Below are positions 3,606 through 52,858 of a stretch of 64,000 nt of DNA, piece after piece. The notes beneath the pieces are model-generated. The model did no database searches and was not told the origin of the DNA. It saw nothing but the letters and a program-made list of their open reading frames with translations. The translations under genes were made by a program, and so were the position numbers. The stretch comes from Candidatus Saccharimonadota bacterium (GTDB taxonomy: Bacteria; Patescibacteriota; Saccharimonadia; Saccharimonadales; Saccharimonadaceae), in the NCBI GenBank assembly GCA_037141755.1, contig JBAXBX010000002.1:28915-92914 (forward strand), in the 5' to 3' direction. The number at the start of each line of letters is the position of its first letter. Position 1 is the stretch's first letter.

Positions 3606-6509
3606 ATGAAATTTAAATCAGGCACCCGCAGACGAGCATTGGAATACGAGAAAGATTTAGTTGCCCAGTGGAAGCAAAACAAAACTTTTGAAAAATCAGT
3701 CAATCAACGACCAATCGAAAATTCGTATGTTTTTTACGATGGTCCACCATTTATTACTGGTGTACCACATTATGGAACCTTGCTAAGTAGTATTGTCAAA
3801 GACGCCGTGCCAAGGTATCAAACCATGAAAGGCAAACGTGTCGAGCGTCGTTGGGGTTGGGATTGTCATGGACTGCCCGCCGAAAACTTCGTCGAGAAAA
3901 AATTAGGTATAACCAGCCGACATGACATTGGCGAAAAAATTAGTTTAGCTGATTATATTACAACTGCACGCGATAACATGGTTCAAAACAGTGCAACCTG
4001 GGAAGATACAATTGACCGTATTGGTCGTTGGGTTGACTTTAAGGGCGCCTACAAAACCATGGATAAAGATTTTATGGAATCCGTTTGGTGGGCCTTTAAA
4101 GCTTTGTACGAAAAAGGCAAGATTTATGAAGGTGAACGCGTTTTAATGTATGATACCAAGTGGGCGACACCACTGTCGAAGGCTGAAGTTACAATGGATG
4201 CCGGTGCTTATATTGTTGTGACTGACCCGAGTGTTTATGTGAAGTTCAAAATGGCTATTGGAATATGGAATATGGAAGATAGCGAATCTCGTAATAGTCA
4301 TCCAGTTTCGTTGTTGGCTTGGACAACGACGCCTTGGACTTTGCCTGGCAATACGGCGCTGGCGATTAATCCAAAGTTGATTTATGCCGAGGTTGAGTTA
4401 GAAGGCGAGCATTTTATTATCGCCAAGGACTTAGTTGATGCCGTACTGACAAATGAGAAACATGTTGTTTTGGACTACAAAATTATTCGAACGTTCAAGG
4501 GTTCAAAATTAATAGGTTTGACCTACGAACCACTATTTGGTGACCGTGGCGACAATGCACACAAAATTTGGGCAGCTGATTATGTAACAACCGAATCAGG
4601 TACGGGTATTGTTCATATTGCGCCAGCTTATGGTGAAGAAGACTTTGCTTTGGCTAAAGAAAACAATATTCCCGTGGTTCATGTCTTGGACGAATACGGT
4701 AAATATATCGAAACTGAATGGTTAGGCAGTGATGTTTGGGAAATTAACAAAACTATTGCCAAAACTTTACACGAACGTGGCGTTGTTTGGAAAATTGATT
4801 ACATTCGTCACGAGTATCCACACAACCCACGCACTGGTAATCGTTTGATGTATCGGGCACATCCAAGTTGGTTTATGGATATCGATGGTCAACGAACTGA
4901 AATGTTAGCTGAAAACACTGAACACATAAATTGGTTTCCGGACCACATAAAACACGGTCGTTTTGAAAAAACTATCGAGACTGCACCAGATTGGAATTTG
5001 TCGCGCGATCGTTTTTGGGCGACAGCAATGCCAGTTTGGAAGGGGATTGATGCTGACGGTAACGAACTTATCAAAGTCATTGGCAGTTACGCCGAGCTTA
5101 AAGAACTTAGCGGCGTTGAGTTGCAGGATTATCACCGCCCATGGGTTGATGACATTAAATTTACGATTGATGGTGTCGAATATACTCGCATCGACAAAGT
5201 TTTGGATGGTTGGTTTGAAAGTGGCAGTATGCCATTTGCACAATTCCATTATCCATTCGAAAATGTTGCCAAATTTGAAGCCAACTTTCCTGGTGACTTT
5301 ATCGTTGAATATGTCGGTCAGGTTAGGGCTTGGTTTTACTACGTGCATGCCGTAAACGTTGGACTGTTTGGTCATAATGCCTTCAAAAACGTTATTGTGA
5401 CCGGAACAATCGCTGGTAATGACGGCCGCAAGATGAGCAAAAGTTATGGTAATTATACCGACACTAATGAATTAATGGATAAATTTAGCGCTGACAGTTT
5501 ACGCTTCTTATTATTGTCCAGCCCGTTACTTAGCGGTGAAGATTTTGCGTTGCAAGACAAAGAAGTCGGTGACGTGGCCCGAAAATTGTCGATGATTTGG
5601 AACATGTACGACTTTTTCACGATGTATGCCGAAGTTGACAGGTGGGAGTTTACGGGTGATTTGTCAGACCCAGTTGAATCGCTAACTAATCCACTGGATA
5701 TTTGGGTTGTCAGTCGTTTACACCAATTAACAGCTGAAGTCGAAAGCAAAATGGATGGTTATGATGTGGCCGGTGCGCTTAAACCTGTACTACCATTTAT
5801 TGAAGACGCCAGCAACTGGTATGTCCGTCGCAGTCGTCGCCGTTTTTGGAAGGCAGGGGATGATACCGACAAAAACAATGCTTACCGAACATTACATTAC
5901 GTACTAGTCCAATTATCGATGATATTAGCACCATTTACGCCATTTTTGGCTGAAGAATTGTATCAAAAACTAATTGGCGGTGAAAGTGTTCACTTGTTGG
6001 ATTGGCCAACGGTTGGACATATTAATGAGTTGGTTGTTACCGAAATGGAAACGGTTCGTGATTACGTAAATCAAGGCCTTAGCATTCGAGCCCGCGAACA
6101 TCAAAAAGTTCGTCAGCCACTAGCTAGCGTTACAGTCCAGAAAATGGGTGAATTTGTTGATTTTGCCGATATTTTAAGCGAAGAATTAAACGTCAAATCA
6201 GTCTTAACTGGCCCAGAATTTAGTCTTGATTTAACGATTACGCCAGAATTAAAAAGTGAAGGCATTGCCCGCGAAGTTATTCGCCATATTCAAACTGCCC
6301 GCAAAGATGCTGGCCTAAATATCGACGATCGAATTCAACTGGTCTTATTAACAGATGACAATGAACTAAAACAGGCGATTGTTGACCATAAAAAAGTAAT
6401 TGTCGAAGAAGTTTTGGCAACCGAGCTTCACGCCACTGGCGACAAAGATTATACTGCCAAAGTTAAAATTGACGCTGCTGATTTAACCATATCTTTGCAA
6501 AAAGCCTAA
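3606..6509 (+). CDS. ileS: isoleucine--tRNA ligase
   Basis: 967 aa with a class I HIGH-like PHYGTLL, KMSKS, WDCHGLP, and an editing-domain-sized insertion. Confidence 0.95.
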   Translation: MKFKSGTRRRALEYEKDLVAQWKQNKTFEKSVNQRPIENSYVFYDGPPFITGVPHYGTLLSSIVKDAVPRYQTMKGKRVERRWGWDCHGLPAENFVEKKLGITSRHDIGEKISLADYITTARDNMVQNSATWEDTIDRIGRWVDFKGAYKTMDKDFMESVWWAFKALYEKGKIYEGERVLMYDTKWATPLSKAEVTMDAGAYIVVTDPSVYVKFKMAIGIWNMEDSESRNSHPVSLLAWTTTPWTLPGNTALAINPKLIYAEVELEGEHFIIAKDLVDAVLTNEKHVVLDYKIIRTFKGSKLIGLTYEPLFGDRGDNAHKIWAADYVTTESGTGIVHIAPAYGEEDFALAKENNIPVVHVLDEYGKYIETEWLGSDVWEINKTIAKTLHERGVVWKIDYIRHEYPHNPRTGNRLMYRAHPSWFMDIDGQRTEMLAENTEHINWFPDHIKHGRFEKTIETAPDWNLSRDRFWATAMPVWKGIDADGNELIKVIGSYAELKELSGVELQDYHRPWVDDIKFTIDGVEYTRIDKVLDGWFESGSMPFAQFHYPFENVAKFEANFPGDFIVEYVGQVRAWFYYVHAVNVGLFGHNAFKNVIVTGTIAGNDGRKMSKSYGNYTDTNELMDKFSADSLRFLLLSSPLLSGEDFALQDKEVGDVARKLSMIWNMYDFFTMYAEVDRWEFTGDLSDPVESLTNPLDIWVVSRLHQLTAEVESKMDGYDVAGALKPVLPFIEDASNWYVRRSRRRFWKAGDDTDKNNAYRTLHYVLVQLSMILAPFTPFLAEELYQKLIGGESVHLLDWPTVGHINELVVTEMETVRDYVNQGLSIRAREHQKVRQPLASVTVQKMGEFVDFADILSEELNVKSVLTGPEFSLDLTITPELKSEGIAREVIRHIQTARKDAGLNIDDRIQLVLLTDDNELKQAIVDHKKVIVEEVLATELHATGDKDYTAKVKIDAADLTISLQKA

Positions 6510-7537: not shown

Positions 7538-7915
7538 ATGACTGATGCGGAATTTGATATTTTGATTACCAAGGCGATGAATGAATTGCCTCAAAAATAT
7601 ATTAAGGGTTTGGATAATGTGGCAATTGTTATGGCGGATAATCCAACGCCCGAACAGCGCCAAAAAATGAATATCGATAGCGACCATCTGTTGTTGGGTC
7701 TATATGAAGGCATTCCATTAACCCAACGTGGGGCAGGCTATTCATTTGTATTACCTGACAAAATTACACTATTCAAAAATTCACTTATCGCCTCAGTAAA
7801 CAATGAAACTGATTTATTTGAACAAATCAAACATACACTTTGGCATGAAATTGCGCATTATTATGGGCTAGATCACGACAGGATTGATCAACTGAGGCGC
7901 AACAATAAACACTAG
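7538..7915 (+). CDS. zincin-like metallopeptidase family protein (DUF1025-like)
   Basis: C-terminal HEIAHYYGLDHDRI (HExxH) and a size of about 125 aa are typical of this family. Confidence 0.65.
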   Translation: MTDAEFDILITKAMNELPQKYIKGLDNVAIVMADNPTPEQRQKMNIDSDHLLLGLYEGIPLTQRGAGYSFVLPDKITLFKNSLIASVNNETDLFEQIKHTLWHEIAHYYGLDHDRIDQLRRNNKH

Positions 7916-18660: not shown

Positions 18661-18708
18661 TGGCTCGCTTTTCATACATAAGTGTTTTATATTAGTATCA
18701 TCGTGAAG

Positions 18709-19617
18709 ATGAAGACAAACAAAAGTAAGACATTGGTTAAGTCGGTTGTAAAGCGGGCGCGTCATCATATCAAGATGGCGGTTGTACCACATCATAAAAA
18801 CGGCTATCGACCACATTTAATTCGTGGCTATGGATTAGTGGCGTTGGCTTTTGTTGTGATTGGAATTCAGTTGGGTTACAACGTGGCGGCGACAGGCCAG
18901 GTACTTGGGATACAATCAGACATTACAATTAACGCAGTATTTGATCAAACGAATCAAGCTAGGATAGAAGCGGGTTTTTTGCCGCTGAAGTTGAATGCTA
19001 AGTTGAACCAAGCGGCTTATTTAAAGGCTGAGGATATGTTTGCTAAACAATATTGGGATCATATTTCGCCTGATGGTGTTCAACCTTGGAAGTGGTTTGG
19101 GGATGTTGGTTATAATTACGATGAAGCAGGCGAGAACTTGGCGAAGGACTTTACATCGACTGATGCAATGGTAACTGCTTGGCTAAATTCGCCCGAACAT
19201 AAAGCTAATTTGTTGCGAGAAAGTTATCAAGATGTTGGGTTTGCGGTTGTTGGTGGAGATTTGAATGGGCAACCAACAATACTAGTCGTGGCATTGTATG
19301 GCAAGCCAGCTACGGTTGCGGTAGCGGCTGCAGCTCAACCATTGGCGCCAGTTGCAGATGGGGCAGCATCAAATGGAAGCCTTAATTTATTAACTCAGTT
19401 TGTAGTTGCGTTGCAATCAATTACACCAGCGGTGATTGTTGGGTTGGTATTAATAGCAGCGGCAATCATTGTCGCCTTATTAGCGCATGCTTATAGACGC
19501 CGATTACCAAAACCTATTCGTTTGTCTTGGCGTCGTCACCACGGATTATACAAAGTTATGGTATTAATATCGTTTAGCTTTGTCGTGATTTTGGTGTATG
19601 GCGGGGGACAAATTTAA
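18709..19617 (+). CDS. CAP/SCP (YkwD-like) domain protein with N- and C-terminal TM segments
   Basis: YWDHISPDG, GENLAKDF and WLNSPEHKANLL are CAP-domain signatures. I prefer the ATG at 18709 over the GTG at 18682. Confidence 0.75.
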   Translation: MKTNKSKTLVKSVVKRARHHIKMAVVPHHKNGYRPHLIRGYGLVALAFVVIGIQLGYNVAATGQVLGIQSDITINAVFDQTNQARIEAGFLPLKLNAKLNQAAYLKAEDMFAKQYWDHISPDGVQPWKWFGDVGYNYDEAGENLAKDFTSTDAMVTAWLNSPEHKANLLRESYQDVGFAVVGGDLNGQPTILVVALYGKPATVAVAAAAQPLAPVADGAASNGSLNLLTQFVVALQSITPAVIVGLVLIAAAIIVALLAHAYRRRLPKPIRLSWRRHHGLYKVMVLISFSFVVILVYGGGQI

Positions 19618-19621
19618 GTTA

Positions 19622-19745
19622 GCTATTGGAATATGGCTATTAGAATATGGCAGTGAGTCACAGTAGGTTAATTAGAAGATGGCAATTAGTTTCATGCCAA
19701 TAGCCAATAGCCAAATTCCAATAGCGGCTGAAGCTATTGCTTCAG
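19622..19745. repeat. palindromic element built from GCTATTGGAATATG-type 14-nt units, plus a terminal hairpin
   Basis: The left arm 19622-19651 matches the reverse complement of the right arm 19696-19725. A CTGAAGC-tatt-GCTTCAG hairpin lies at 19728-19745. Related copies are at 25488, 44622 and 52834. Confidence 0.8.
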
Positions 19746-25037: not shown

Positions 25038-25851
25038 ATACTAGAATATAGTTGGCTTGTTGGTCGATTGTAAACGAATGTTGTCTTGCATAATTAATTA
25101 AATCTTGGTGTTGCTCTGGATCGGCTTCGATAATTAAATAACTGCCAGGTGACATTATTTTACTAGCTTGAATGATTAATTTATTGATTAAGGCTTTGCC
25201 GCCATCATCGGCGAATAGAGCCAGTGTTGGCTCGTAGTTGGTTTCAGGTGAACGTTTCCATGATCTGTCGACGTATGGTAGATTAGCGATAATAATATCT
25301 GGTCGGCCTTTGTATTTTTTTAACAAATCATTTTGTAGGAATGATACGTTGGCTGATAGTTTTTTGGCGTTTAAAGATGCAATCTCTAAGGCCTCAGCAC
25401 TGATATCGGTTAGTGTAATGTCAAGGTTGGGGAATTCTAATTTAGCGGTAATGCCTAGACATCCACTGCCTGTGCCAATGTCAATTAGGTTGGCTATTGG
25501 AATATGGCTATTGGAATATGGCAATACAATGCTTTTTAGGATAGTGATAATGTCTTCGGATTCGGGGCGGGGGATTAGAGTAGCTGGCGTGACTGTGAAA
25601 TTGCGTCCGTAAAATTCTTTGTAACCTGTAATATAGGCGCTTGGTATACGATTTAGGCGCTTGACTAAGTATCCATCGGCGTCTTTTGTCTGTTGATCAT
25701 CAAGAATTTGTTCTGGATGGGCGTGCAAATAGGTGCGGTCCTTATTTATGGCACAGGCCAAAAGAACTTCGGCGTCCAGGCGCGCGCTAATTATCTCGGC
25801 GACTGATAATTGTGTTGTTGCTGTACTTATCCAATCTTTAATGGCTGGCAT
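25024..25851 (-). CDS. prmC: release factor glutamine N5-methyltransferase PrmC/HemK
   Basis: SAM motif IDIGTGSG and a motif IV variant IIANLPYV (NLPY instead of NPPY). It overlaps the end of prfA. Confidence 0.9.
25488..25527. repeat. tandem 14-nt repeat units of the dispersed family, located inside the prmC CDS
   Basis: ggttGGCTATTGGAATATGGCTATTGGAATATGGCaatac. The minus strand encodes [13 protein letters not shown]. Confidence 0.85.
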
Positions 25852-26990: not shown

Positions 26991-27311
26991 CTACTTTTCA
27001 GTTTTGCTGGCTTTGCGAGTGCTGGCTTTTTTAGCTTTGCTGGCAAGCGCAACTTTGCGAGCTTCGGCAGCAGCAAATTTAGCTTTAAAGCGATCGACGC
27101 GACCTTCGGTGTCGATAATCTTTTCTTCACCTGTAAAGAATGGGTGAGAAGCTGATGAGATGTGGATTTTAACAAGTGGATACTCGTTGCCATCTTCCCA
27201 TTTAATAGTTTCGGTAGTTTGCGCGGTAGACTGTGTCAAAAACGCAAACCCAGCCACCTCGTCGCTAAATACGACAGGGCGATATTCGGTTGGGTGTAAT
27301 TTAGTTTTCAT
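26991..27311 (-). CDS. rpmE: 50S ribosomal protein L31, type B (Cys-less), with a Lys/Ala-rich C-terminal extension
   Basis: MKTKLHP...HPFFTG...GRVDRF core without CxxC, followed by a basic tail of about 30 aa. Confidence 0.9.
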
Positions 27312-27373
27312 ATTGGACTATTGTATCTGTTTTTTGGTGAATTGTCAAAGGGTAAAGTTGTTCGCTTACGGCA

Positions 27374-27422
27374 CGGGTCCTGCCGTCCGGTTTCCCCGGC
27401 CCAATCCCCACCGAACGTCACC
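27374..27422 (-). ncRNA. compact copy of a conserved bipartite structured motif
   Basis: The minus strand reads GGUGACGUUCGGUGGGG-auugggccgggga-AACCGGACGGCAGGACCCG. Both blocks are identical to 42777-42793 and 42843-42861. Confidence 0.5.
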
Positions 27423-27488
27423 TGTTTTAAATCTGTTACTTAGTCGAAAGTATAGTATACAACATTGAAAGGTGTAAATATCGTAAAT

Positions 27489-27507
27489 TCCTGGGTTGAA
27501 CCTAGGA
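27489..27507. repeat. imperfect palindrome TCCTGGGTTGAACCTAGGA
   Basis: Seen directly. It shares a GGGTT-S-AACC core with the next palindrome. Confidence 0.7.
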
Positions 27508-27553
27508 AAAATAAAACATGGTTCACTACAGAAGATAAGGTATCTACATATTT

Positions 27554-27580
27554 GTCAATCAGGGTTCAACCCTGATTGAC
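27554..27580. repeat. perfect 13-1-13 palindrome GTCAATCAGGGTT-C-AACCCTGATTGAC
   Basis: Seen directly. It lies in the divergent rpmE / DGR-target intergenic region. Confidence 0.85.
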
Positions 27581-27724: not shown

Positions 27725-28819
27725 ATGAATAAAATATTCTTAACTTCGAAAAATGAACCTGTCACTCTACCACCTACTACCTACAAACTACCATCTACCA
27801 AACCTGGTTTCACCCATGCTTCGCCAAGGCTACGCAGGATAAAGGTAGCTTCGCCAGCCTTTACAATCGTCGAACTCCTAGTAGTCATCGTAGTCATCGG
27901 TATCCTTGCCGCTATCACAATAGTTAGCTACACTGGTATCTCTCAAAAAGCTATTGTCGCCACCCTCCAATCTGATCTAGGCAATGCTTCAAAAACAATT
28001 AAGCTATATCAAGTCGAACAAGGACAATTTCCAACTTCCTTTGATGCCAACAATTGCCCAGTCCCAGCCAATGCCAGATACTGCCTGAAAGCCAGTTCAG
28101 GTAATACTTTTGACAGGACTGCCTATGCTGCATCTGTCAACAACTCGACTAATCCTCAAACCTTTACATTGGATGTTACTAATACCAATACGACTAAATA
28201 CCGCATTACTAATAATTCAGCACCAATAGCTGTATCTGCCACACCTGAAACACTAGCCGACACAGACCCAGCTAACTGGCTAGCCATAGGAACTCAGGTC
28301 TGGGGCAAATACAACCTTAACGTCGGTACTATGGTTACTGGCGTAACTGCTCAAACTAACAACTTAATCCTAGAAAAATACTGTTCCGCCAACACTGAAT
28401 CAAACTGCACAACCTACGGTGGTCTATACCAATGGGATGAAGCCATGCAATACGTCACAACTAACGGCGCTCAAGGCATCTGTCCAACTGGATCACATAT
28501 TCCATCTGACAACGATTGGAAGGTGTTAGAGGTTCAACTCGGTATGACTCAGGTGCAAGCTGATGCGATTGCTTGGCGCGGTACTAATCAAGGCACTCAA
28601 TTGAAAAATGGCGGAACGTCGGGGTTGAATATGCCGCTTGCCGGCCTCCGCTACACCGACGGGTCCTTCGACACTCTGTCGTCGTTCGCTTACTTGTGGT
28701 CTAGTTCGGAGTCGAGCACTAGTGCTTGGGAACGTACCTTGTACTCGGGTTACGCGACGGTGTACCGTGACACGCTTGGCAAGGCGGGCGGTTTTTCGGT
28801 ACGCTGCCTAGGAAATTGA
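27725..28819 (+). CDS. DGR variable protein: type IV pilin-like N-terminus fused to a FISUMP / C-type-lectin-fold domain
   Basis: Class III signal-like A|FTIVELLVVIVVIGILAAITIVSY. FISUMP-like YGGLYQWDEAM, CPTGSHIPSDNDW and GFSVRCLGN. The last ~62 codons are the VR. Confidence 0.9.
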   Translation: MNKIFLTSKNEPVTLPPTTYKLPSTKPGFTHASPRLRRIKVASPAFTIVELLVVIVVIGILAAITIVSYTGISQKAIVATLQSDLGNASKTIKLYQVEQGQFPTSFDANNCPVPANARYCLKASSGNTFDRTAYAASVNNSTNPQTFTLDVTNTNTTKYRITNNSAPIAVSATPETLADTDPANWLAIGTQVWGKYNLNVGTMVTGVTAQTNNLILEKYCSANTESNCTTYGGLYQWDEAMQYVTTNGAQGICPTGSHIPSDNDWKVLEVQLGMTQVQADAIAWRGTNQGTQLKNGGTSGLNMPLAGLRYTDGSFDTLSSFAYLWSSSESSTSAWERTLYSGYATVYRDTLGKAGGFSVRCLGN

Positions 28820-28821
28820 TT
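28634..28821 (+). repeat. DGR variable repeat (VR)
   Basis: 188-nt ungapped match to 29424-29611. It has 21 mismatches, 20 of them opposite TR adenines. Confidence 0.92.
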
Positions 28822-28935
28822 GTTCGATTTGACTATTTGACCCTTTGACTATTTTTGTACAAAATAAATTAGATTTGGCTGTTAAATATAAAATTTCGTG
28901 ATGGTATGTTTATTAAAATAAGGTGGATAAAAAAT

Positions 28936-29334
28936 ATGACGACATATTACAATTTGCCTGTTTATAAACAAAGTTATGATTTGCTTTTAGAGATATTTAA
29001 ATTGACGAAGGAATTTAATCGGGAATATAAATATACGATTGGTGAAGAACTAAAAAAAGAGACTACTGCAATGATAATCAATATTTATCGAGCTAATAGC
29101 AGCAATAATAAAGTCGATTATATCGTTAGTGCTAGGGAAAATATTGAGGTTATTCGATTATTGATTAGGCTGCTAAAAGATTTAAAACAAATTCAAGTGG
29201 CTAGAATTGCCAGATTAAATTTAGCGATCGAGGAACTGTCGAAACAGTTAACCGGTTGGGGAAATTATTCAAAAATAAATAGTGCTAAAGGGCCAGAACC
29301 ATTCGTTGCCAAGTTGGCGAGTGGGCGCGCCTAA
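28936..29334 (+). CDS. avd: Avd-like accessory protein (four-helix-bundle family)
   Basis: 132 aa. LPVYKQSYDLLLEIFKLTKEF..EYKYTIGEELKKE is typical of the four-helix-bundle / 23S IVS protein family. AGGTGGA RBS. It is positioned between VR and TR. Confidence 0.8.
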   Translation: MTTYYNLPVYKQSYDLLLEIFKLTKEFNREYKYTIGEELKKETTAMIINIYRANSSNNKVDYIVSARENIEVIRLLIRLLKDLKQIQVARIARLNLAIEELSKQLTGWGNYSKINSAKGPEPFVAKLASGRA

Positions 29335-29349
29335 TCAATTTAGTAATCT

Positions 29350-29376
29350 CCTCGCTTAGCGAGCGAGGTCTATAAT
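29350..29376 (+). promoter_or_regulatory. hairpin (CCTCGCT-tagcg-AGCGAGG) followed by TATAAT, a possible TR-RT promoter region
   Basis: Stem at 29350-29356 / 29362-29368 and a -10-like box at 29371-29376, about 48 nt upstream of the TR. Confidence 0.35.
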
Positions 29377-29423
29377 TTACCAAAAGACATTTTCTTTTAG
29401 TAAAGAGGTATATGATTACTGTC

Positions 29424-29611
29424 CCGCTTGCCGGCAACCGCAACACCGACGGGTCCTTCAACAATCTGTCGTCGAACGCTAACTTGTGGTCTAGTTCGGA
29501 GTCGAGCACTAGTGCTTGGGAACGTAACTTGAACTCGGGTAACGCGACGGTGAACCGTAACACGAATGACAAGGCGAACGGCTTTTCGGTACGATGCCTA
29601 GAAAATTGATT
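29424..29611 (+). repeat. DGR template repeat (TR), non-coding
   Basis: The VR homolog carries AAC/AAT wherever the VR codons vary. It ends 14 nt before the RT ATG. The 65-aa ORF called here is an artefact. Confidence 0.92.
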
Positions 29612-29625
29612 AAAAAGTAAAATAT

Positions 29626-30846
29626 ATGACAGAAAAACATATACAAATTACTCACGAATATAGCCTGATTGAGGATATCTTTCAGGCTTATTATGATGCT
29701 CGTAAAAATAAACGAAATTCTAATAGTTCTTTGGGATTTGAACTTGAATATGAGAAAAACTTGGTACAACTCTTCCACGAAATTAATGAACGAAGTTACA
29801 AGCCCAGGCCTTATTCTGCATTTATTATCGAAAAACCAGTCAAAAGAGAAGTTTTTGCAAGTGAGTTTAGGGATAGAGTAGTCCATCATCTGATATTTAA
29901 TTATATTAATCCAATATTCGACCCACTTTTTATAAATGATAGTTACAGTTGTCGCGTAAATAAAGGTACTTCGTATGGTATAAAAAGAGCTGACTATTTT
30001 ATAAAGTCATGTAGCCAAAACTATAAAAAAGACGCCTACATAATGAAATTAGATGTAGAAGGTTATTTTATGTCGATTGATAAAACGATACTTTTTGAAA
30101 TTATTAAAACGCAAATTATTAAACGTCAAGACAAGTTGATTTGTGAGTTAGATTTAATATTATTTTTGGTTGAAAAGGTTATTTTTTGCGACCCAACGAA
30201 AGATTGCATAATTAAAAGTGGGCGAGAGTCGTGGCAAGGGTTGCCAAAATCAAAAAGTCTGTTCTTTTCTGGTAAAAATAAAGGTCTACCGATAGGTAAT
30301 TTGACATCTCAGCTTTTCGCAAATATTTATCTGAATGAAATTGATCAATTCATAAAACGGGAGCTAAAATTTAAATATTACGGACGATATGTGGATGATA
30401 TGATTTTTGTCGATAATGATAAAGAGCGATTAATATGGGCTATTAAAGAAATTAAAAAATATTTAGCGTCCAATTTATCATTAAAGCTTCATCCAAAGAA
30501 AATATATTTGCAGAACTCCAATAAGGGAGTTAATTTTTTAGGCGCATTTATAAAACCATATAGGATTTTAGTCGGGAAAAGAATAAAAAGTAATTTATAT
30601 CGTAAAGTGTATGAAGGACTATATATTTTGAACTATTCGAATGCTAAAATCAGTGATTTTGATAAAAATTTTGAATTTAAACAATTAATTAATTCATATT
30701 TTGGTATATTAAAACAGGCAAATTCTTATACATTCAGAAAAGGAGTCGTAGAATTAATTGTCGATATATCTAGAGGTGATTTTGTGCCAAATGATGATTT
30801 TAGTGTGATAAGTTTATGTAAAAAATATACAGTTTTGAAAGTGTGA
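29626..30846 (+). CDS. DGR-type reverse transcriptase
   Basis: LPIGNLTSQLFANIYL (DGR-type motif 4), catalytic YVDD, and an RVVHHL fingers region. 406 aa. Confidence 0.9.
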   Translation: MTEKHIQITHEYSLIEDIFQAYYDARKNKRNSNSSLGFELEYEKNLVQLFHEINERSYKPRPYSAFIIEKPVKREVFASEFRDRVVHHLIFNYINPIFDPLFINDSYSCRVNKGTSYGIKRADYFIKSCSQNYKKDAYIMKLDVEGYFMSIDKTILFEIIKTQIIKRQDKLICELDLILFLVEKVIFCDPTKDCIIKSGRESWQGLPKSKSLFFSGKNKGLPIGNLTSQLFANIYLNEIDQFIKRELKFKYYGRYVDDMIFVDNDKERLIWAIKEIKKYLASNLSLKLHPKKIYLQNSNKGVNFLGAFIKPYRILVGKRIKSNLYRKVYEGLYILNYSNAKISDFDKNFEFKQLINSYFGILKQANSYTFRKGVVELIVDISRGDFVPNDDFSVISLCKKYTVLKV

Positions 30847-30853
30847 AGGGATG

Positions 30854-30972
30854 CGTCCAACACCACTTGGTTTATTGCAAACGGATGCGAAGCGGTAGCG
30901 GAGGCCGAACGCCACGTGCTGACGAAGTCACACGTAGAGTGGCCGTTTGTATGAACTTAGTGGTGGTGGACG
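30854..30972 (+). ncRNA. GC-rich structured element downstream of the RT (candidate ncRNA, function unknown)
   Basis: Nested stems: 30854-30867 with 30959-30972 (13 of 14 bp), 30877-30884 with 30943-30950, and an inner hairpin at 30914-30935 with a GAA loop. It is markedly GC-rich compared with its surroundings. Confidence 0.35.
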
Positions 30973-31110
30973 GGAGAATAAGAAATGTATTGATTTTAAC
31001 CACCCAAGGTGTTAAGATAGTCAGGTAAACAATTTTAATGAAGCAGTTTGCGTAGATAACTCCTGGTAATTAATCGGGTACGCAAGCGAAGAAAAAGGAG
31101 TTCAAATATT

Positions 31111-40783: not shown

Positions 40784-41467
40784 ATGATAGAGGTGAAAAA
40801 AATATCGAAGACTTACGGCAAGGGCGACAACGCTTTTAAGGTCTTGAAAAACATAAATTTTACAATTCCAGATGGTGCTAGTGTGGCGATTTTGGGCAAA
40901 TCAGGCAGTGGTAAATCAACCTTGATGCATGTTATGAGCGGTCTTGATCGACCGGATAGTGGTGAAATTATTATAGATGGCAAAGATATATTAAAACTTA
41001 GCCAAAAAGATGTCGACAAATTTCGCTCGACCAAGATGAGCTTTATTTTTCAAAGCTTTTTCGTTCAAGCTAACGAAAGTTGTTATGACAATGTCAGTTT
41101 GCCACTTGAAATTGCTGACTTATCGGCTGGTAGACGTCGATCGAAAATTGAAACGGCTTTAACTGCAGTTGACTTGGCTGATAAAATAAAATCACGGGCC
41201 AGGGATTTGTCTGGTGGCCAAAAGCAACGTTTGGCAGTCGCTAGAGCGATTGTTAATAGTCCACAAATTTTGTTTGCCGATGAACCAACTGGAAATCTAG
41301 ACAGTGTGACTGGTGGTAAGGTTGAAAGTTTGTTGTTTAATTATAATAAAAAGAACAAAATCACATTGATTGTTGTAACGCATGATCCAGAATTAGCGGC
41401 CCGATGTGATATCCAAATTCATATCAAAGATGGCAAGATTGATTCAATCAAGGAGATGAAAAAATGA
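40784..41467 (+). CDS. ABC transporter ATP-binding protein (MacB/LolD-like)
   Basis: GKSGSGKST, LSGGQKQR and LFADEPTGNLD. Confidence 0.9.
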   Translation: MIEVKKISKTYGKGDNAFKVLKNINFTIPDGASVAILGKSGSGKSTLMHVMSGLDRPDSGEIIIDGKDILKLSQKDVDKFRSTKMSFIFQSFFVQANESCYDNVSLPLEIADLSAGRRRSKIETALTAVDLADKIKSRARDLSGGQKQRLAVARAIVNSPQILFADEPTGNLDSVTGGKVESLLFNYNKKNKITLIVVTHDPELAARCDIQIHIKDGKIDSIKEMKK

Positions 41468-42741
41468 AATTACGTGATATAGCGATAAGGGCTGGACGAA
41501 GCCTAAAACAAGCTAAGGCTCGAACATTGCTGACTAGTTTGGCAATCGGCGTTGGTGCTTTTACGATTACTCTATCACTGGCAGCGGGTGTCGGTGGGCG
41601 AGCTTACACTGATCAGATTGTTAATGCCAACACTAATGTTAAGGAATTGAGTGTGACAAAAAAACCACCAGCTGCTCAGCAAGGACCACAAAAATACACT
41701 GGCGTTGCTGCAGTTTCTTCAAGCTCGTTTTTCTCTGGCCAGGAATTGACACAAGATGACATAGACAAAATTCTAAAAGTAGATGGTGTCGTTTCGGTTT
41801 CGCCAAATTACAGTCCGCAAATAAAATATATTACTAGAACGGATCAAGAAAAATATGTTGCCACAATTAGCACTTTTAGCCCCAGCGTGACGCTCAAATT
41901 TGCCGCTGGTTCGGTTAGTGGTGATCTAGCTGATAATGAAATAATTTTAACTGAAGAATATGTTACAGCGCTTGGATTTAGTAGTAATGCTGACGCGGTT
42001 GGAAAGACTGTCGAAATTGTTGCCGATAAGTTGTCGTCACCAGTGACTGCCCCTGAAAGTAACACATTTATATATACAGTCAAAGGTGTCAGCAGTAAAT
42101 CTGGTTTGGCGTTTAGAGCTCAAAGTTCACTGTTAATATCAAATGCCTCAGCTAAAACTTTGTATGATTATATAAATATTGGCACTCGTAGTTATGGTAA
42201 CTACCTTGTGGCTTCGGTTGAGACCGCTAGTGCTAGCCAAGCGACAAAAGTGAAAGACGATTTGACGAGTATGGGTTATTTGGCGCAGACAGCGGCTGAT
42301 GTGCTGGGTGTAATTAATACATTTATCAATGTCTTGCAAGGAATTTTGCTGGGCTTTGGTGCTTTGGCAGTATTAACATCGGTCTTTGGAATCATCAACA
42401 CTCAATATATTAGCGTCTTGGAGCGTACACAACAGATTGGGTTAATGAAAGCGCTGGGTATGCGACGTCGAGATGTTGGGCGATTGTTCAAACTTGAAGC
42501 CGCCTGGATTGGACTGCTGGGCGGGTCAATTGGCACAGGTTTGGCGGTGATTTTGGGCGTAATTGCTAATCCGATTATCAGTAAGTCACTTGATATTGGT
42601 GATGTTAGTTTGATTGTCTTTACTCCGATGAATATTGCAATTGTAATCATCGGCTTAGTATTCGTATCTGTTTCATCTGGCATCTTACCAGCACGCAAGG
42701 CTGCCAAATTGAATCCGATTGAAGCATTACGAACAGAGTAG
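41464..42741 (+). CDS. ABC transporter permease (FtsX/MacB-type)
   Basis: N-terminal TM helix, a large periplasmic-type domain, and a C-terminal FtsX-like 3-TM bundle. It overlaps the ATPase gene. Confidence 0.85.
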   Translation: MKLRDIAIRAGRSLKQAKARTLLTSLAIGVGAFTITLSLAAGVGGRAYTDQIVNANTNVKELSVTKKPPAAQQGPQKYTGVAAVSSSSFFSGQELTQDDIDKILKVDGVVSVSPNYSPQIKYITRTDQEKYVATISTFSPSVTLKFAAGSVSGDLADNEIILTEEYVTALGFSSNADAVGKTVEIVADKLSSPVTAPESNTFIYTVKGVSSKSGLAFRAQSSLLISNASAKTLYDYINIGTRSYGNYLVASVETASASQATKVKDDLTSMGYLAQTAADVLGVINTFINVLQGILLGFGALAVLTSVFGIINTQYISVLERTQQIGLMKALGMRRRDVGRLFKLEAAWIGLLGGSIGTGLAVILGVIANPIISKSLDIGDVSLIVFTPMNIAIVIIGLVFVSVSSGILPARKAAKLNPIEALRTE

Positions 42742-42749
42742 TTTTGCTA

Positions 42750-42883
42750 AACCTGAGTTGTAAAACCCAAACCGCGGGTGACGTTCGGTGGGGCGACCCC
42801 AATATTGTTTTGTTTGTAATCGAACAAAAAATATTAGGGGTGAACCGGACGGCAGGACCCGAGGGGGTTTTGCAACTCAGGTT
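42750..42883 (+). ncRNA. extended copy of the conserved bipartite structured motif, closed by a 19-bp outer stem
   Basis: Outer stem 42750-42768 / 42865-42883. The core blocks 42777-42793 and 42843-42861 are identical to the rpmE-side copy. An inserted hairpin lies at 42797-42840. Confidence 0.5.
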
Positions 42884-42916
42884 ATCAACAGATGAAAAAT
42901 CTGGTACAATATTGAT

Positions 42917-44215
42917 ATGTTAGATATTAGATTTATCCGTGATAACGCTGACGCAGTTCAAATCAACGCTAAGAATAAGGGATATGATGTAGATATTACT
43001 ACATTATTGAAGTTAGATTCTGAACGTCGTGAACTGTTAGTCCAAGTTGATGATTTACGCCAAAAGCGCAATGATATTGTATCTCAAACCAAAGGCGGTA
43101 AGCCAACAGATGAATTGATTGCGGCTGGTAAAGTTGTTAAAGATCAATTAGCTATTATTGAACCACAACTTAAAGAAGCTGATGTCAGTTTTACAACGTT
43201 ACTTAAAAAAGTTCCAAACATGGCAGCCAGCGATGTGCCCATTGGCGCTACTGAAGATGAAAACGTTGTATCCAAAACGGTAGGTGACTTGCCACAGTTT
43301 GATTTTGCACCCAAAAACCATGCTGATATCGCTGCAAATTTAGGCTGGATTGATAAAGAACGCGCTGCCAAGGTGACGGGCAGTCGATTTGCCTATATCG
43401 AAGGCGATTTAGTCAGATTGCAATTGGCGATTGTCCAGTATGTGATTAACACTTTAGGTGACGAAGTGACGATTGCTGAGATTGCTAAAAACGCTGGTTT
43501 GACGGTCTCGCCTAAACCATTTACGCCAATTTTACCACCACTGTTGATTAGAACTGATATGTATGACGCCATGGATCGTCTGGAGCCTCGTGATGAAAGA
43601 TATAAGCTGGAAGGTGATGATTTGTGGTTACAGGGTAGTGCCGAGCACGTCCTGGGTAGTATGCATGCTGGTGAGGTGTTTGATGAATCTCAGTTACCAC
43701 TACGTTATGTTGGTTATGCCACTAGTTTTCGTCGTGAGGCAGGTACTTACGGCAAAGATATGGAAGGTATCTTTAGAATGCATCAATTTGATAAATTGGA
43801 AATGGAAAGTTTTGCAACTGCTAGCGATGGTCTAAATGAGCATCTGTTATTTGTTGCGATTCAAGAATATTTGTTGGCCCAATTAGGATTGCCATACCGA
43901 GTCTTGCAAAAATGTACTTTTGATATTGGCAAACCAAATGCGCGCGGTGTGGACATGGAAACGTGGTTGCCAGGACAGGGAAAATACCGTGAAACCCACA
44001 CAGCTGATTACATGACTGACTATCAGTCACGACGTTTGAACACACGCGTCCGTCGTCAGTCGGGTGAACTTGAACTGGTTCATACTAATGATGCGACGGC
44101 ATTTGCATTAGGCCGTATTATGATTGCGATTATCGAAAATGGGCAAACGGCGGACGGAAAAGTTCGCGTGCCAACAGTTTTGCAGCCTTATTTGGCTGGC
44201 AAAGCAGTGCTATAA
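42917..44215 (+). CDS. serS: serine--tRNA ligase
   Basis: N-terminal coiled-coil arm, class II motifs (FRREAG, GQGKYRETHT). TACAAT lies 6 nt upstream of the ATG. Confidence 0.95.
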   Translation: MLDIRFIRDNADAVQINAKNKGYDVDITTLLKLDSERRELLVQVDDLRQKRNDIVSQTKGGKPTDELIAAGKVVKDQLAIIEPQLKEADVSFTTLLKKVPNMAASDVPIGATEDENVVSKTVGDLPQFDFAPKNHADIAANLGWIDKERAAKVTGSRFAYIEGDLVRLQLAIVQYVINTLGDEVTIAEIAKNAGLTVSPKPFTPILPPLLIRTDMYDAMDRLEPRDERYKLEGDDLWLQGSAEHVLGSMHAGEVFDESQLPLRYVGYATSFRREAGTYGKDMEGIFRMHQFDKLEMESFATASDGLNEHLLFVAIQEYLLAQLGLPYRVLQKCTFDIGKPNARGVDMETWLPGQGKYRETHTADYMTDYQSRRLNTRVRRQSGELELVHTNDATAFALGRIMIAIIENGQTADGKVRVPTVLQPYLAGKAVL

Positions 44216-44248: not shown

Positions 44249-44620
44249 ATGATTACATCAATTCAAATTACAGGTATTGCATATGAAGTCGACGATAACA
44301 CTCGCAAATATGTCGAAAAGCGGATTGGACGATTGGATAGATATTTACCAAAGCATGCCCGTAACAGTGTGACGGCTGATGTAAAGCTAGCTCAGGTTAA
44401 TCATAATCATGGTAATAAATACGAAGTTGAAGTTATTTTGAATGTGCCAAATAAGATAGTGACCGCTAAAGATTCAACCAGTAATATTTTAGCTGCAGTT
44501 GATATTGTTGAGGCAAAAATTCAAGCGCAATTACGTGAATACAAGCAATCGGCGATTGCTCATATTGGTAAGCGTGGTGTGATGAGCCGATTTAAGAAAA
44601 GCTTTAAACGCGAATTATAA
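44249..44620 (+). CDS. hpf: ribosome hibernation promoting factor (short HPF/RaiA family)
   Basis: The layout I.ITG....V.D..R.YVEKRIGRLDRYL is typical of the sigma54-modulation / S30EA family. Confidence 0.85.
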   Translation: MITSIQITGIAYEVDDNTRKYVEKRIGRLDRYLPKHARNSVTADVKLAQVNHNHGNKYEVEVILNVPNKIVTAKDSTSNILAAVDIVEAKIQAQLREYKQSAIAHIGKRGVMSRFKKSFKREL

Positions 44621-44621
44621 A

Positions 44622-44740
44622 GGTTGGCTATTAGAATATAGCTATTGGAATATGGCGCGGGTTAGATATTGGCTAATAGAAGTTGGCTGTTGGAATTGAG
44701 ATTTCCGCCATATTCCACATTCCAATAGCCAATAGCTAAA
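44622..44740. repeat. palindromic element of the GCTATTGGAATATG repeat family
   Basis: The left arm 44626-44657 matches the reverse complement of the right arm 44706-44736. Confidence 0.8.
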
Positions 44741-52643: not shown

Positions 52644-52833
52644 AAGCCCATCGGGTCCTGTTAGGTCGGGATTGGGGGTTGGGAAATGGGAAATAGGAAA
52701 GTAAAAAAGCAAGAAATAGTCTAACATAGGAAAAATAGAAAAGATGCACAAAATAACACTTCTCAAGGTCGGTGCTCTAACAGAGGGAAAATATTGCATT
52801 TTATGAAATGGTTATTAATCAACCTTTGCCACC

Positions 52834-52858
52834 TTCCAATAGCCAAATTCCAATCGCT
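52834..52858. repeat. single-arm copy of the dispersed repeat family
   Basis: TTCCAATAGCCAAATTCCAATCGC matches the right-arm type of the copies at 19696 and 44706. Confidence 0.6.

Follow-up and report, generated by a model that had tools for sequence, protein, structure and literature searches.

A structured dispersed element with conserved loops in Saccharibacteria, Omnitrophota and Acidobacteriota: a possible miniature mobile element

Introduction

Palindromic elements that are dispersed over a genome are known, as are orphan structured RNAs. To the first kind belong the Rickettsia palindromic elements (RPEs), reportedly described by Ogata et al. in 2000, and the REP/REPIN elements, which Bertels and Rainey are said to have treated in 2011 as being mobilised by RAYT transposases. 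The element discussed here, which together with its relatives is called family A, was found in a stretch of 64,000 nucleotides (nt), referred to as the window, from a Candidatus Saccharimonadota bacterium (assembly GCA_037141755.1, contig JBAXBX010000002.1, positions 28,915 to 92,914). The window contains a long copy upstream of serS and a short copy upstream of rpmE, which an initial sequence-only reading had described as an unassigned structured motif. The interpretation that we prefer, with a probability of only about 0.42, is that family A is a structure-dependent, non-autonomous dispersed element that resembles RPEs and REPINs and is transcribed as a hairpin in 3' untranslated regions (3'UTRs). 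A trans-acting RNA, a module acting at the 3' ends of transcripts and a ribozyme follow in that order, and these readings are not fully exclusive.

Like RPEs, family A is dispersed, about 100-150 nt long, present in several copies per genome, folded into long hairpins and without an encoded protein, and it occurs in frame inside a conserved protein gene to which it adds a peptide segment (mnmA of L119; L-numbers indicate fetched loci carrying matches or relatives). Whereas RPEs are confined to one genus, family A has identical loops in at least three phyla, compensatory changes in its stems and a low copy number. The resemblance to REP/REPIN elements lies in strand-specific hairpins with conserved bulges, in the location after gene ends and between convergent genes, and in inverted doublets, found here in L119 and L169. 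However, a GTAG-type 5' tag is absent, no RAYT or Y1 transposase was found nearby, and the tens to hundreds of copies of REP/REPIN elements contrast with a handful of copies whose sequence identity extends across phyla. Integron attC sites also form a folded single-stranded rod with conserved unpaired or bulged positions and a variable terminal structure, just past a stop codon, but their R''/R' boxes (RYYYAAC/GTTRRRY) are absent from the family sequences read, which end in AACCTGA...TCAGGTT or in varying sequence. Moreover, family A copies stand singly beside essential housekeeping genes instead of in cassette arrays, and no integrase is among the listed flanking families. With orphan non-coding RNAs and with twister and hammerhead ribozymes, the family shares invariant loops, covarying stems, optional hairpins, long and short forms, and a multi-copy occurrence across phyla with no consistent gene association; it differs from them in having no Rfam 15 match and in its insertions in coding sequence, which point to movement at the DNA level.

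Family A combines loops that are invariant across phyla with covarying stems, a low copy number, insertion in frame and linkage to a second RNA, and with this combination it cannot be assigned to a described family. It may, as a tentative proposal to which we give somewhat less than even odds, represent either an unrecognised class of functional RNA that crosses phyla or a new miniature mobile element that is recognised by its structure. A functional RNA would be a protein-binding scaffold or self-cleaving ribozyme built around the invariant AGG-bulged helix and the G-run. It would be a widespread orphan RNA class in ultrasmall Saccharibacteria, in Omnitrophota and in soil Acidobacteriota, with a bulged helix that invites a search for its partner. 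If it is a mobile element, a non-coding sequence of about 100 nt with identical recognition loops across phyla is tolerated inside an essential gene, which implies a shared mobilisation system; the mobilising machinery would then be conserved from Saccharibacteria to Acidobacteriota. In either case there is a lesson for annotation, since such elements mimic riboswitches upstream of housekeeping genes, whereas in genomes rich in leaderless genes they are part of the upstream transcript.

Structure and conservation of the element

Two sequence blocks define the copies in the window. The 17-mer GGTGACGTTCGGTGGGG is present at exactly two sites, 42777-42793 (+) and 27406-27422 (-), and the same is true for the 19-mer AACCGGACGGCAGGACCCG (42843-42861 on the plus strand and 27374-27392 on the minus strand). 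No third site of either block exists in the window at up to 3 mismatches, and two block matches were reached in none of 100 shuffled sequences. The exact search thus agrees with what had been noted initially, namely that both blocks are common to the two copies in the same order, that each copy is oriented like its downstream gene (plus for serS, minus for rpmE), and that a chance match is excluded.

The consensus order of the family is P1, a helix with an invariant AGG bulge (GGGU-GAC / GGC-AGG-ACCC), P2, a loop with a G-run, and a variable hairpin P3. Together these form a rod, which can be read as two diverged inverted half-sites, with a core of about 95 nt that extends to about 135 nt when arms are present (Table 1). 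The minimum free energy (MFE) fold of the serS copy consists of a 19-bp outer stem and an inner hairpin, at -75.2 kcal/mol (z = -8.8), and confirms the closing stem and extra hairpin proposed for this copy. Its arms follow a consensus, AACCTGAnTCTCAAAACC...GGTTTTGAGAnTCAGGTT, that recurs at other loci, and many Saccharibacteria copies carry such arms, which resemble terminal inverted repeats (TIRs). For the family as a whole they occur in a subset, many copies having only a short and variable P1. The short rpmE copy when taken alone has an ordinary stability (z = +0.98), yet it matches the covariance model with 46 bits (E = 7e-10) and is followed on its 3' side by a local hairpin, ACGGCA/UGCCGU. 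Other short forms were found in L193 and L153.

Conservation is unevenly distributed over the rod. P1 is of variable length, its inner CGGGU/ACCCG is invariant, and its closing C-G pair covaries to U-A and G-C. The GGGU/ACCC pairing that had been predicted is part of the invariant sequence and is neither supported nor contradicted by covariation. P2, of about 7 bp, varies freely; four to seven of its pairs covary, a variant with tandem G.A occurs in about 20 sequences, and the predicted GUUCGGU/ACCGGAC pairing is backed by covariation in relatives. In the first internal loop, the C42782-G42851 pair is part of the RNAalifold consensus, and in four variants that were recovered by the covariance model only, GAC is changed to GGC together with a change of GGCAGG to GACAGG, so that A.G becomes G.A. 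The GGGG of the second internal loop is present in all 15 genuine matches of the first scan described below, the pattern of which half-specified it, and in L098 and L112 a hairpin between the G-run and the CCCC behind it is not possible. In P3 of the serS copy, an A/U-rich helix (UUGUUUU/AAAAAAU) is accompanied by a G-UAAU-C loop at the apex (42816-42821). In the family, P3 pair 30-88 is GC in 55, AU in 21 and CG in 8 sequences, and the distal part of P3 differs widely in size, being absent in short forms and a branched, GC-rich domain in Acidobacteriota. Two P3 subtypes, AAUAUU..GCCG and AUAAUU..AUGG, have swapped loci between L071/L095 (metagenome-assembled genome (MAG) GFS_10842) and L076/L100 (MAG LacPavin), and comparison of these sequences suggests gene conversion or replacement between copies.

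Statistical support for the structure is strong. In a MAFFT alignment of 91 sequences, double-sided pair changes were found in 101 cells as compared to 23 in shuffles, of which none of 500 reached the observed value. The corresponding figures for a model-fitted alignment of 106 matches were 150 and 32, and the signal was lost when pairing partners were slid. Compensatory changes beyond those of shuffled controls are as expected for a structured RNA; they bear out the early view of a structured element and support its pairings. The fold is strand-specific, since the serS copy scores 97 bits on the plus strand against 14.8 on the minus strand, and G.U pairs (79) exceed A.C pairs (8, one position left out).

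A cross-phylum rod with two conserved internal loops could also be a new class of self-cleaving ribozyme. Its sporadic, multi-copy occurrence with no gene association, and its invariant core with variable stems, form the genomic signature that is typical for hammerhead and twister. Still, we consider this very unlikely, as no known ribozyme family matches at relaxed thresholds, no conserved pseudoknot or loop-loop pairing was seen, and the sequence marks no cleavage site. Furthermore, small ribozymes are common in viral contigs, whereas family A is absent from the viral contigs that were searched.

Known families and distribution

Searches for described families gave no assignment. With Rfam 15 at the gathering score, nothing in the whole window matched the element, and at E ≤ 10 the regions 42650-42950 and 27250-27560 produced chance matches to microRNAs and small RNAs only, with no RF00379. 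A set of 49 related loci from Saccharibacteria, Omnitrophota and Acidobacteriota likewise had no match (33 searched at the gathering score, 16 at E ≤ 5). The loose likeness to the c-di-AMP (ydaO) riboswitch that had been mentioned with reserve therefore fails, there being no Rfam family even at E ≤ 10. The ydaO riboswitch has a pseudo-two-fold architecture. Its sole similarity to family A consists of loose G-rich and C-rich stretches around a hairpin, whereas family A is a single rod that is not located in a 5'UTR and has an unrelated gene context. ydaO was rejected as a candidate because it gave no covariance-model match and because the element is separated from the start codons of serS and rpmE by their promoters. 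Signal recognition particle RNA, 6S RNA, RNase P RNA, tmRNA and tRNA-like RNA were also rejected, as were a T-box, a k-turn and domain V of a group II intron: a reading of the sequences shows none of the motifs that define them, and the element occurs in several copies. Neither ARAGORN nor Rfam detected any of these RNA classes. Literature searches by sequence word and topic yielded nothing relevant to the family, and the opening part of the main section of a 2026 gLM2 preprint does not mention the element.

The distribution was explored by two scans. The first used a two-block pattern on one genome per GTDB species (185,579 species) and gave 84 matches, which comprise 15 genuine low-GC copies, one variant and 68 chance matches in GC-rich DNA. 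All 15 genuine copies are in Saccharibacteria-like MAGs, with at most 4 per MAG. The variant (L037) is from a MAG deposited as Deltaproteobacteria; the other 68 of the 69 high-GC matches are chance matches in coding DNA. The second scan, of metagenome contigs, was anchored on the loops and left the stems free, and gave at least 119 loci. Both scans together provided at least 122 distinct cores, on contigs with a GC content of 0.36 to 0.73. The family thus occurs in Saccharibacteria, Omnitrophota, Acidobacteriota and the one MAG deposited as Deltaproteobacteria, and among the scan matches the loops are identical across the first three. The Omnitrophota assignment is based on the aspartyl-tRNA synthetase (AspRS) of L164, whose identity to proteins named Candidatus Omnitrophica reaches 87%, and that to Acidobacteriota (Vicinamibacterales) on PpiD of L122, which is 61-65% identical to proteins so named. 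Carriage by phages or plasmids was considered and rejected, as no case of it turned up; four viral-contig matches to one 17-mer were chance matches in coding DNA.

Insertion and spread at the DNA level

Filled and empty sites are one indication of mobility. In the dnaE-hup-hisS-aspS cluster, which is conserved in Omnitrophota, a copy is located between hisS and aspS only in L164. In relatives with an AspRS that is 75-90% identical, the two genes abut or overlap (L227, L232), are 27 nt apart (L234), or are separated by an unrelated spacer of 158 nt (L229). Similarly, three sets of relatives, at loci encoding close L31 homologues, have intergenic regions of 60-80 nt upstream of rpmE that do not contain the motif.

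Insertion in coding sequence is illustrated by mnmA of L119 (141-1526, +), which carries two inverted copies (584-679 and 696-798) and has kept its reading frame. Residues 6-132 and 243-457 of the protein align to contiguous parts of solved MnmA structures, with about 102 extra residues in between, and the insertion site corresponds to residues 136-143 of these structures. A 132-nt unit of this gene recurs with 95% identity after dnaN in L169, where the copies again form an inverted pair. Other pairs of copies combine 93-98% core identity with unrelated flanks, among them the serS copy of the window and L073, where the next gene resembles rnpA, a judgement from the N-terminus alone. Near-identical copies at unrelated loci, filled and empty sites, and a frame-preserving insertion into coding sequence are properties of RPEs and of miniature inverted-repeat transposable elements (MITEs), and the inverted doublets and the location at gene ends are those of REP/REPIN elements.

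The finding of many copies in varied contexts across genomes, which according to the sequence-only reading would point to a plain dispersed repeat, agrees with a dispersed repeat. The family is not a plain one, however, given its covarying structure and the invariance of its loops across phyla. We propose that it is a miniature element of the kind of RPEs or REPINs, which would spread non-autonomously as DNA, with a folded single strand of DNA or RNA being recognised by a putative copying or insertion machinery. Such single-strand recognition would explain that the bulged helix and the G-run are invariant while the stems drift. What the data show are the fold, the distribution, the genomic contexts and the insertions, whereas the way of mobilisation, transcription and an influence on neighbouring genes are inferred.

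A further observation on copies concerns L039 and L081 of MAG bin-1717, which are contigs that end or start with the same family A copy and have an identical upstream flank and differing downstream sequences. This repeat probably breaks the assembly.

Genomic context of the copies

Orientation was counted for 56 copies that have confidently called, non-overlapping neighbours and no element B (see below) upstream. Relative to the element, the upstream and downstream genes are same/same in 21, same/opposite in 16, opposite/same in 11 and opposite/opposite in 8 cases. The upstream gene is thus preferentially co-oriented (37 vs 19, p = 0.022), and there is no bias for the downstream gene, which is on the other strand in 24 of the 56. 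Copies occupy short non-coding gaps, usually a few nt past a stop codon: 2-47 nt after that of a co-oriented upstream gene, and 1-49 nt from that of a downstream gene in convergent orientation. The start codon of a downstream gene is farther away and at a more variable distance (28-200 nt). Omnitrophota copies precede ribosome-binding sites by 30-50 nt.

The 63 genes that end beside a copy have housekeeping functions with no dominant family, and neighbours include aminoacyl-tRNA synthetase genes and genes for GTPases, RF1 and TlyA, as well as xth, murB, rny, dnaX and clpP. Among the 38 co-oriented downstream genes are serS, hisS, valS, aspS, gltX, rpmE, rpsF, xth, murB, rny, dnaX, uvrA and clpP, with a second case of rpmE in L160. 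A connection between the element and serS and rpmE in particular, as was implied by the two copies in the window, does not hold, in view of the many unrelated housekeeping neighbours in all orientations, the relatives that have no element at rpmE, and the close relatives that differ in the presence of a copy at one and the same junction. A generic cis-regulatory leader was rejected for the reason that the downstream genes are functionally unrelated, 24 of the 56 being located on the opposite strand.

At the ends of the element, the pattern is less regular. No positional peak of -10 boxes indicative of a promoter at a fixed upstream distance was found, a terminator follows the element at 13 of 92 loci, which is not above control positions, and a terminator stands between upstream gene and element at 5 of 92. 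In arm-bearing copies, a GGUUUU(G) stretch pairs with an upstream A-tract and the core stem is followed by 4 U; most copies have no U-tract. As to the boundary with the upstream gene, in L164 the reading frame of this gene (hisS by synteny, ending at 354) extends into the element, where the UGA within the conserved GGGUGAC (349-354) is its stop codon, and the data set has two upstream open reading frames that terminate 5 nt within the core.

In the window, genes are of two classes, having either a Shine-Dalgarno sequence or a TAnAAT box 6-9 nt before the ATG. To the latter belong many operon-first genes that have no Shine-Dalgarno sequence (e.g. starts at 7538, 22564, 24237, 27311, 37155, 40784, 42917, 52884, 55995 and 62481), whereas operon-internal genes do have one. 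Since such a box precedes serS, rpmE and the ABC ATPase gene (40784), these genes are considered leaderless; the TACAAT boxes close to the ATG of serS and rpmE had already been noticed and were found at 6 and 8 nt, respectively. The long copy starts 9 nt past the stop codon of the ABC-transporter permease gene and ends where the -35 hexamer of serS begins, and from this position it would be the 3'-terminal part of the operon before it rather than a serS leader. With a leaderless serS mRNA, the long copy is outside this mRNA, so that serS would be influenced, if at all, by insulation or by a stabilised 3' end of the upstream transcript, and not by ligand sensing. The short copy precedes the rpmE promoter in an intergenic region between divergent genes, and would have its own transcription if the candidate promoter at 27449-27478, which is predicted by consensus match, is active. 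The L31 protein encoded by rpmE is of type B and shares 85-98% identity with L31 of Candidatus Saccharimonadales, which places the window in a Saccharibacteria genome.

This arrangement bears directly on the possibility that serS and rpmE are under the control of the element as a riboswitch, such as ydaO, or as a protein-binding leader. In its favour, each copy in the window points in the same direction as the gene that follows it, the downstream genes elsewhere include several for aminoacyl-tRNA synthetases and another rpmE, and the Omnitrophota copies are 30-50 nt away from ribosome-binding sites. Nevertheless, this explanation is strongly disfavoured and can hardly be maintained: the element is upstream of the promoters of two leaderless genes, neither ydaO nor another Rfam family is found, the downstream genes are unrelated and often on the other strand, and relatives have no element at rpmE and aspS. 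The original suspicion that this is not a classical 5'UTR riboswitch was therefore justified.

The position just past stop codons raises the question of a cis-acting 3'-end module, i.e., a conditional terminator, an insulator or a stabilising hairpin that shields leaderless promoters and has a bulge to which a termination or decay factor binds. The serS copy ends at the serS -35 box, no other terminator follows the ABC operon (40784-42741), and arm-bearing copies flank a GC-rich stem with an A-tract and a U-tract, as bidirectional terminators do. However, standard intrinsic terminators serve other genes of the window, which means that the element is not the organism's general terminator, and the U-tract is missing in most copies. 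Copies are also present inside operons, before the ribosome-binding site of an essential gene (hisS-A-aspS, gcvPA-A-gcvPB), where a terminator would be harmful, and terminators need no loops that are invariant across phyla. A dedicated 3'-end function thus appears improbable, although not to the same degree as a ribozyme. When seen as a miniature element, the long copy of the window would act at most as an insulator or as the 3'UTR hairpin of the leaderless ABC-transporter operon.

Mobile element or trans-acting RNA

Several observations weigh against a miniature mobile element. By eye, no target-site duplications were seen at the ends of a few arm-bearing copies. The 63 flanking proteins have listed families that comprise no transposase, integrase or reverse transcriptase, and a crude pattern detected no Y1 transposase in 1.57 Mb of fetched loci. 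The number of copies detected per genome is low (2-4 among fetched loci), and the family was found in none of 50,697 phage records, 72,556 plasmids and 2.9 million IMG/VR viral contigs. The invariance of the loops across phyla is unusual for REP/MITE-like repeats and typical of functional RNAs; it is partly built in, since the fetched examples were obtained with patterns that fixed the loops in both scans, loop variation being tested solely by the few extra covariance-model matches. Finally, copies at the same locus in different species show compensatory stem differences (L071/L076/L138; loci upstream of xth, murB and rny), and the retention of copies with compensated stems suggests selection after insertion.

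The main alternative is a trans-acting, stable small RNA or ribonucleoprotein scaffold, in which the AGG bulge and the G-run would bind a conserved cellular partner. Such an RNA would be made by read-through from housekeeping genes upstream, after element B or from its own promoter, would be trimmed at the variable P1, and its genes would duplicate like tRNA genes. Invariant loops with covarying stems and a strand-specific fold, retention at the same locus across species, and absence from the searched viruses and plasmids are all in agreement with it. The same applies to the co-oriented upstream gene with few terminators in between. Divergent or antisense copies (rpmE, L106/L186) would need a promoter of their own, and -10-like boxes are present there. 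On the other hand, two copies are in frame in mnmA, presence at the hisS-aspS junction is variable, and there is neither a promoter at fixed distance nor a consistent terminator (13/92). Moreover, the strict scan of species representatives found genuine copies in only about 10 MAGs among 185,579 species. On this evidence a trans-acting RNA seems unlikely, while being the most serious competitor of the miniature element.

Neighbouring features in the window

The coordinates of the copies, of the surrounding genes and promoters, and of other elements in the window are collected in Table 1.

Table 1 Positions of the family A copies, their structural parts and neighbouring features in the window
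Feature	Position	Strand	Remarks
Outer stem 5' arm (P1 extension, AACCUGAGUUGUAAAACCC)	42750-42768	+	Pairs with 42865-42883; MFE fold
P1 5' strand CC-G-CGGGU	42772-42779	+	Pairs with 42857-42864; recurrent G.A mismatch 42774/42862
Conserved GAC, internal loop 1 5' side	42780-42782	+	Predicted pairs G42780-C42853, A42781.G42852, C42782-G42851
P2 5' strand GUUCGGU	42783-42789	+	Pairs with 42844-42850
Single-stranded G-run (GGGG + 1-5 nt), internal loop 2 5' side	42790-42795	+	3' side 42842-42843
Variable P3 hairpin	42796-42841	+	Base ACCCC/GGGGU covaries; absent from short rpmE copy
P2 3' strand ACCGGAC	42844-42850	+	Covariation
Conserved GGCAGG	42851-42856	+	G-G-C pairs with GAC; A42854-G42855-G42856 is 3-nt bulge
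P1 3' strand ACCCG-A-GG	42857-42864	+	MFE fold, consensus
Outer stem 3' arm (GGGUUUUGCAACUCAGGUU)	42865-42883	+	MFE fold
Short-form copy	27367-27432, core 27374-27422	-	P1, AGG-bulged helix, P2 and G-run intact; 13-nt loop replaces P3
Leaderless ABC-transporter operon	40784-42741		Upstream of long copy
ABC-transporter permease gene	41464-42741		Stop codon 42739-42741
serS promoter	42882-42916	+	TTATCA, 17 nt, TG-TACAAT; ATG (42917) 6 nt downstream
serS	42917-44215	+	Downstream of long copy
Candidate promoter	27449-27478	-	TTTACA, 18 nt, TATACT; about 27 nt upstream of short copy; consensus match only
rpmE promoter	27320-27348	-	TTGACA, 17 nt, TACAAT; ATG 8 nt downstream
rpmE	27311-26991	-	Leaderless, downstream of short copy
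Element B	30866-30982	-	Second conserved structured non-coding element, about 120 nt
Diversity-generating retroelement (DGR), complete	27725-30846	+	Between element B and short family A copy, which are adjacent in other genomes
DGR target gene	27725-28819	+	Ends in variable repeat (...GFSVRCLGN)
Avd-like gene	28906-29334	+	Judged from sequence only
DGR template repeat, Asn/AAC-rich	about 29412-29609	+	
DGR reverse transcriptase	29626-30846	+	LPIGNLTSQ and YVDD motifs
Third repeat sites	19621-19726, 25492-25522, 44626-44730, 52828-52858, 4253-4269		

Element B is the second RNA to which family A is linked. In 14 of its 17 occurrences, in Saccharibacteria, it is located 61-190 nt upstream of a family A copy on the same strand (its loci include L077, L100, L112, L131, L137, L154, L156, L157, L172, L182, L200, L201, L212 and L226). 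Its hairpin (CUACGUGUGAC-loop-GUCAGCACGUGG) hardly varies and its outer stem covaries; the element is itself multi-copy, with two copies on contig Ga0209512_1000059, and gave no Rfam match in the window or at related loci. In one contig, the unit formed by B, the linker and A (about 300 nt) is present in duplicate, with homology that ends at the 3' end of A. In the window, the short rpmE copy has kept the usual 3' part of the linker, and a DGR cassette of 3.4 kb separates it from element B. A link of the family to the reverse transcriptase of this cassette was rejected, as no other locus carries such a reverse transcriptase.

A third repeat family was also observed in the window. Its 14-nt unit, GGCTATTGGAATAT, has 12 matches there against 0.33 expected. 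Long hairpins formed by the repeat follow the gene at 18682-19617 and hpf (44249-44620), further matches are within coding regions, and one of its copies interrupts the B-A linker in L172.

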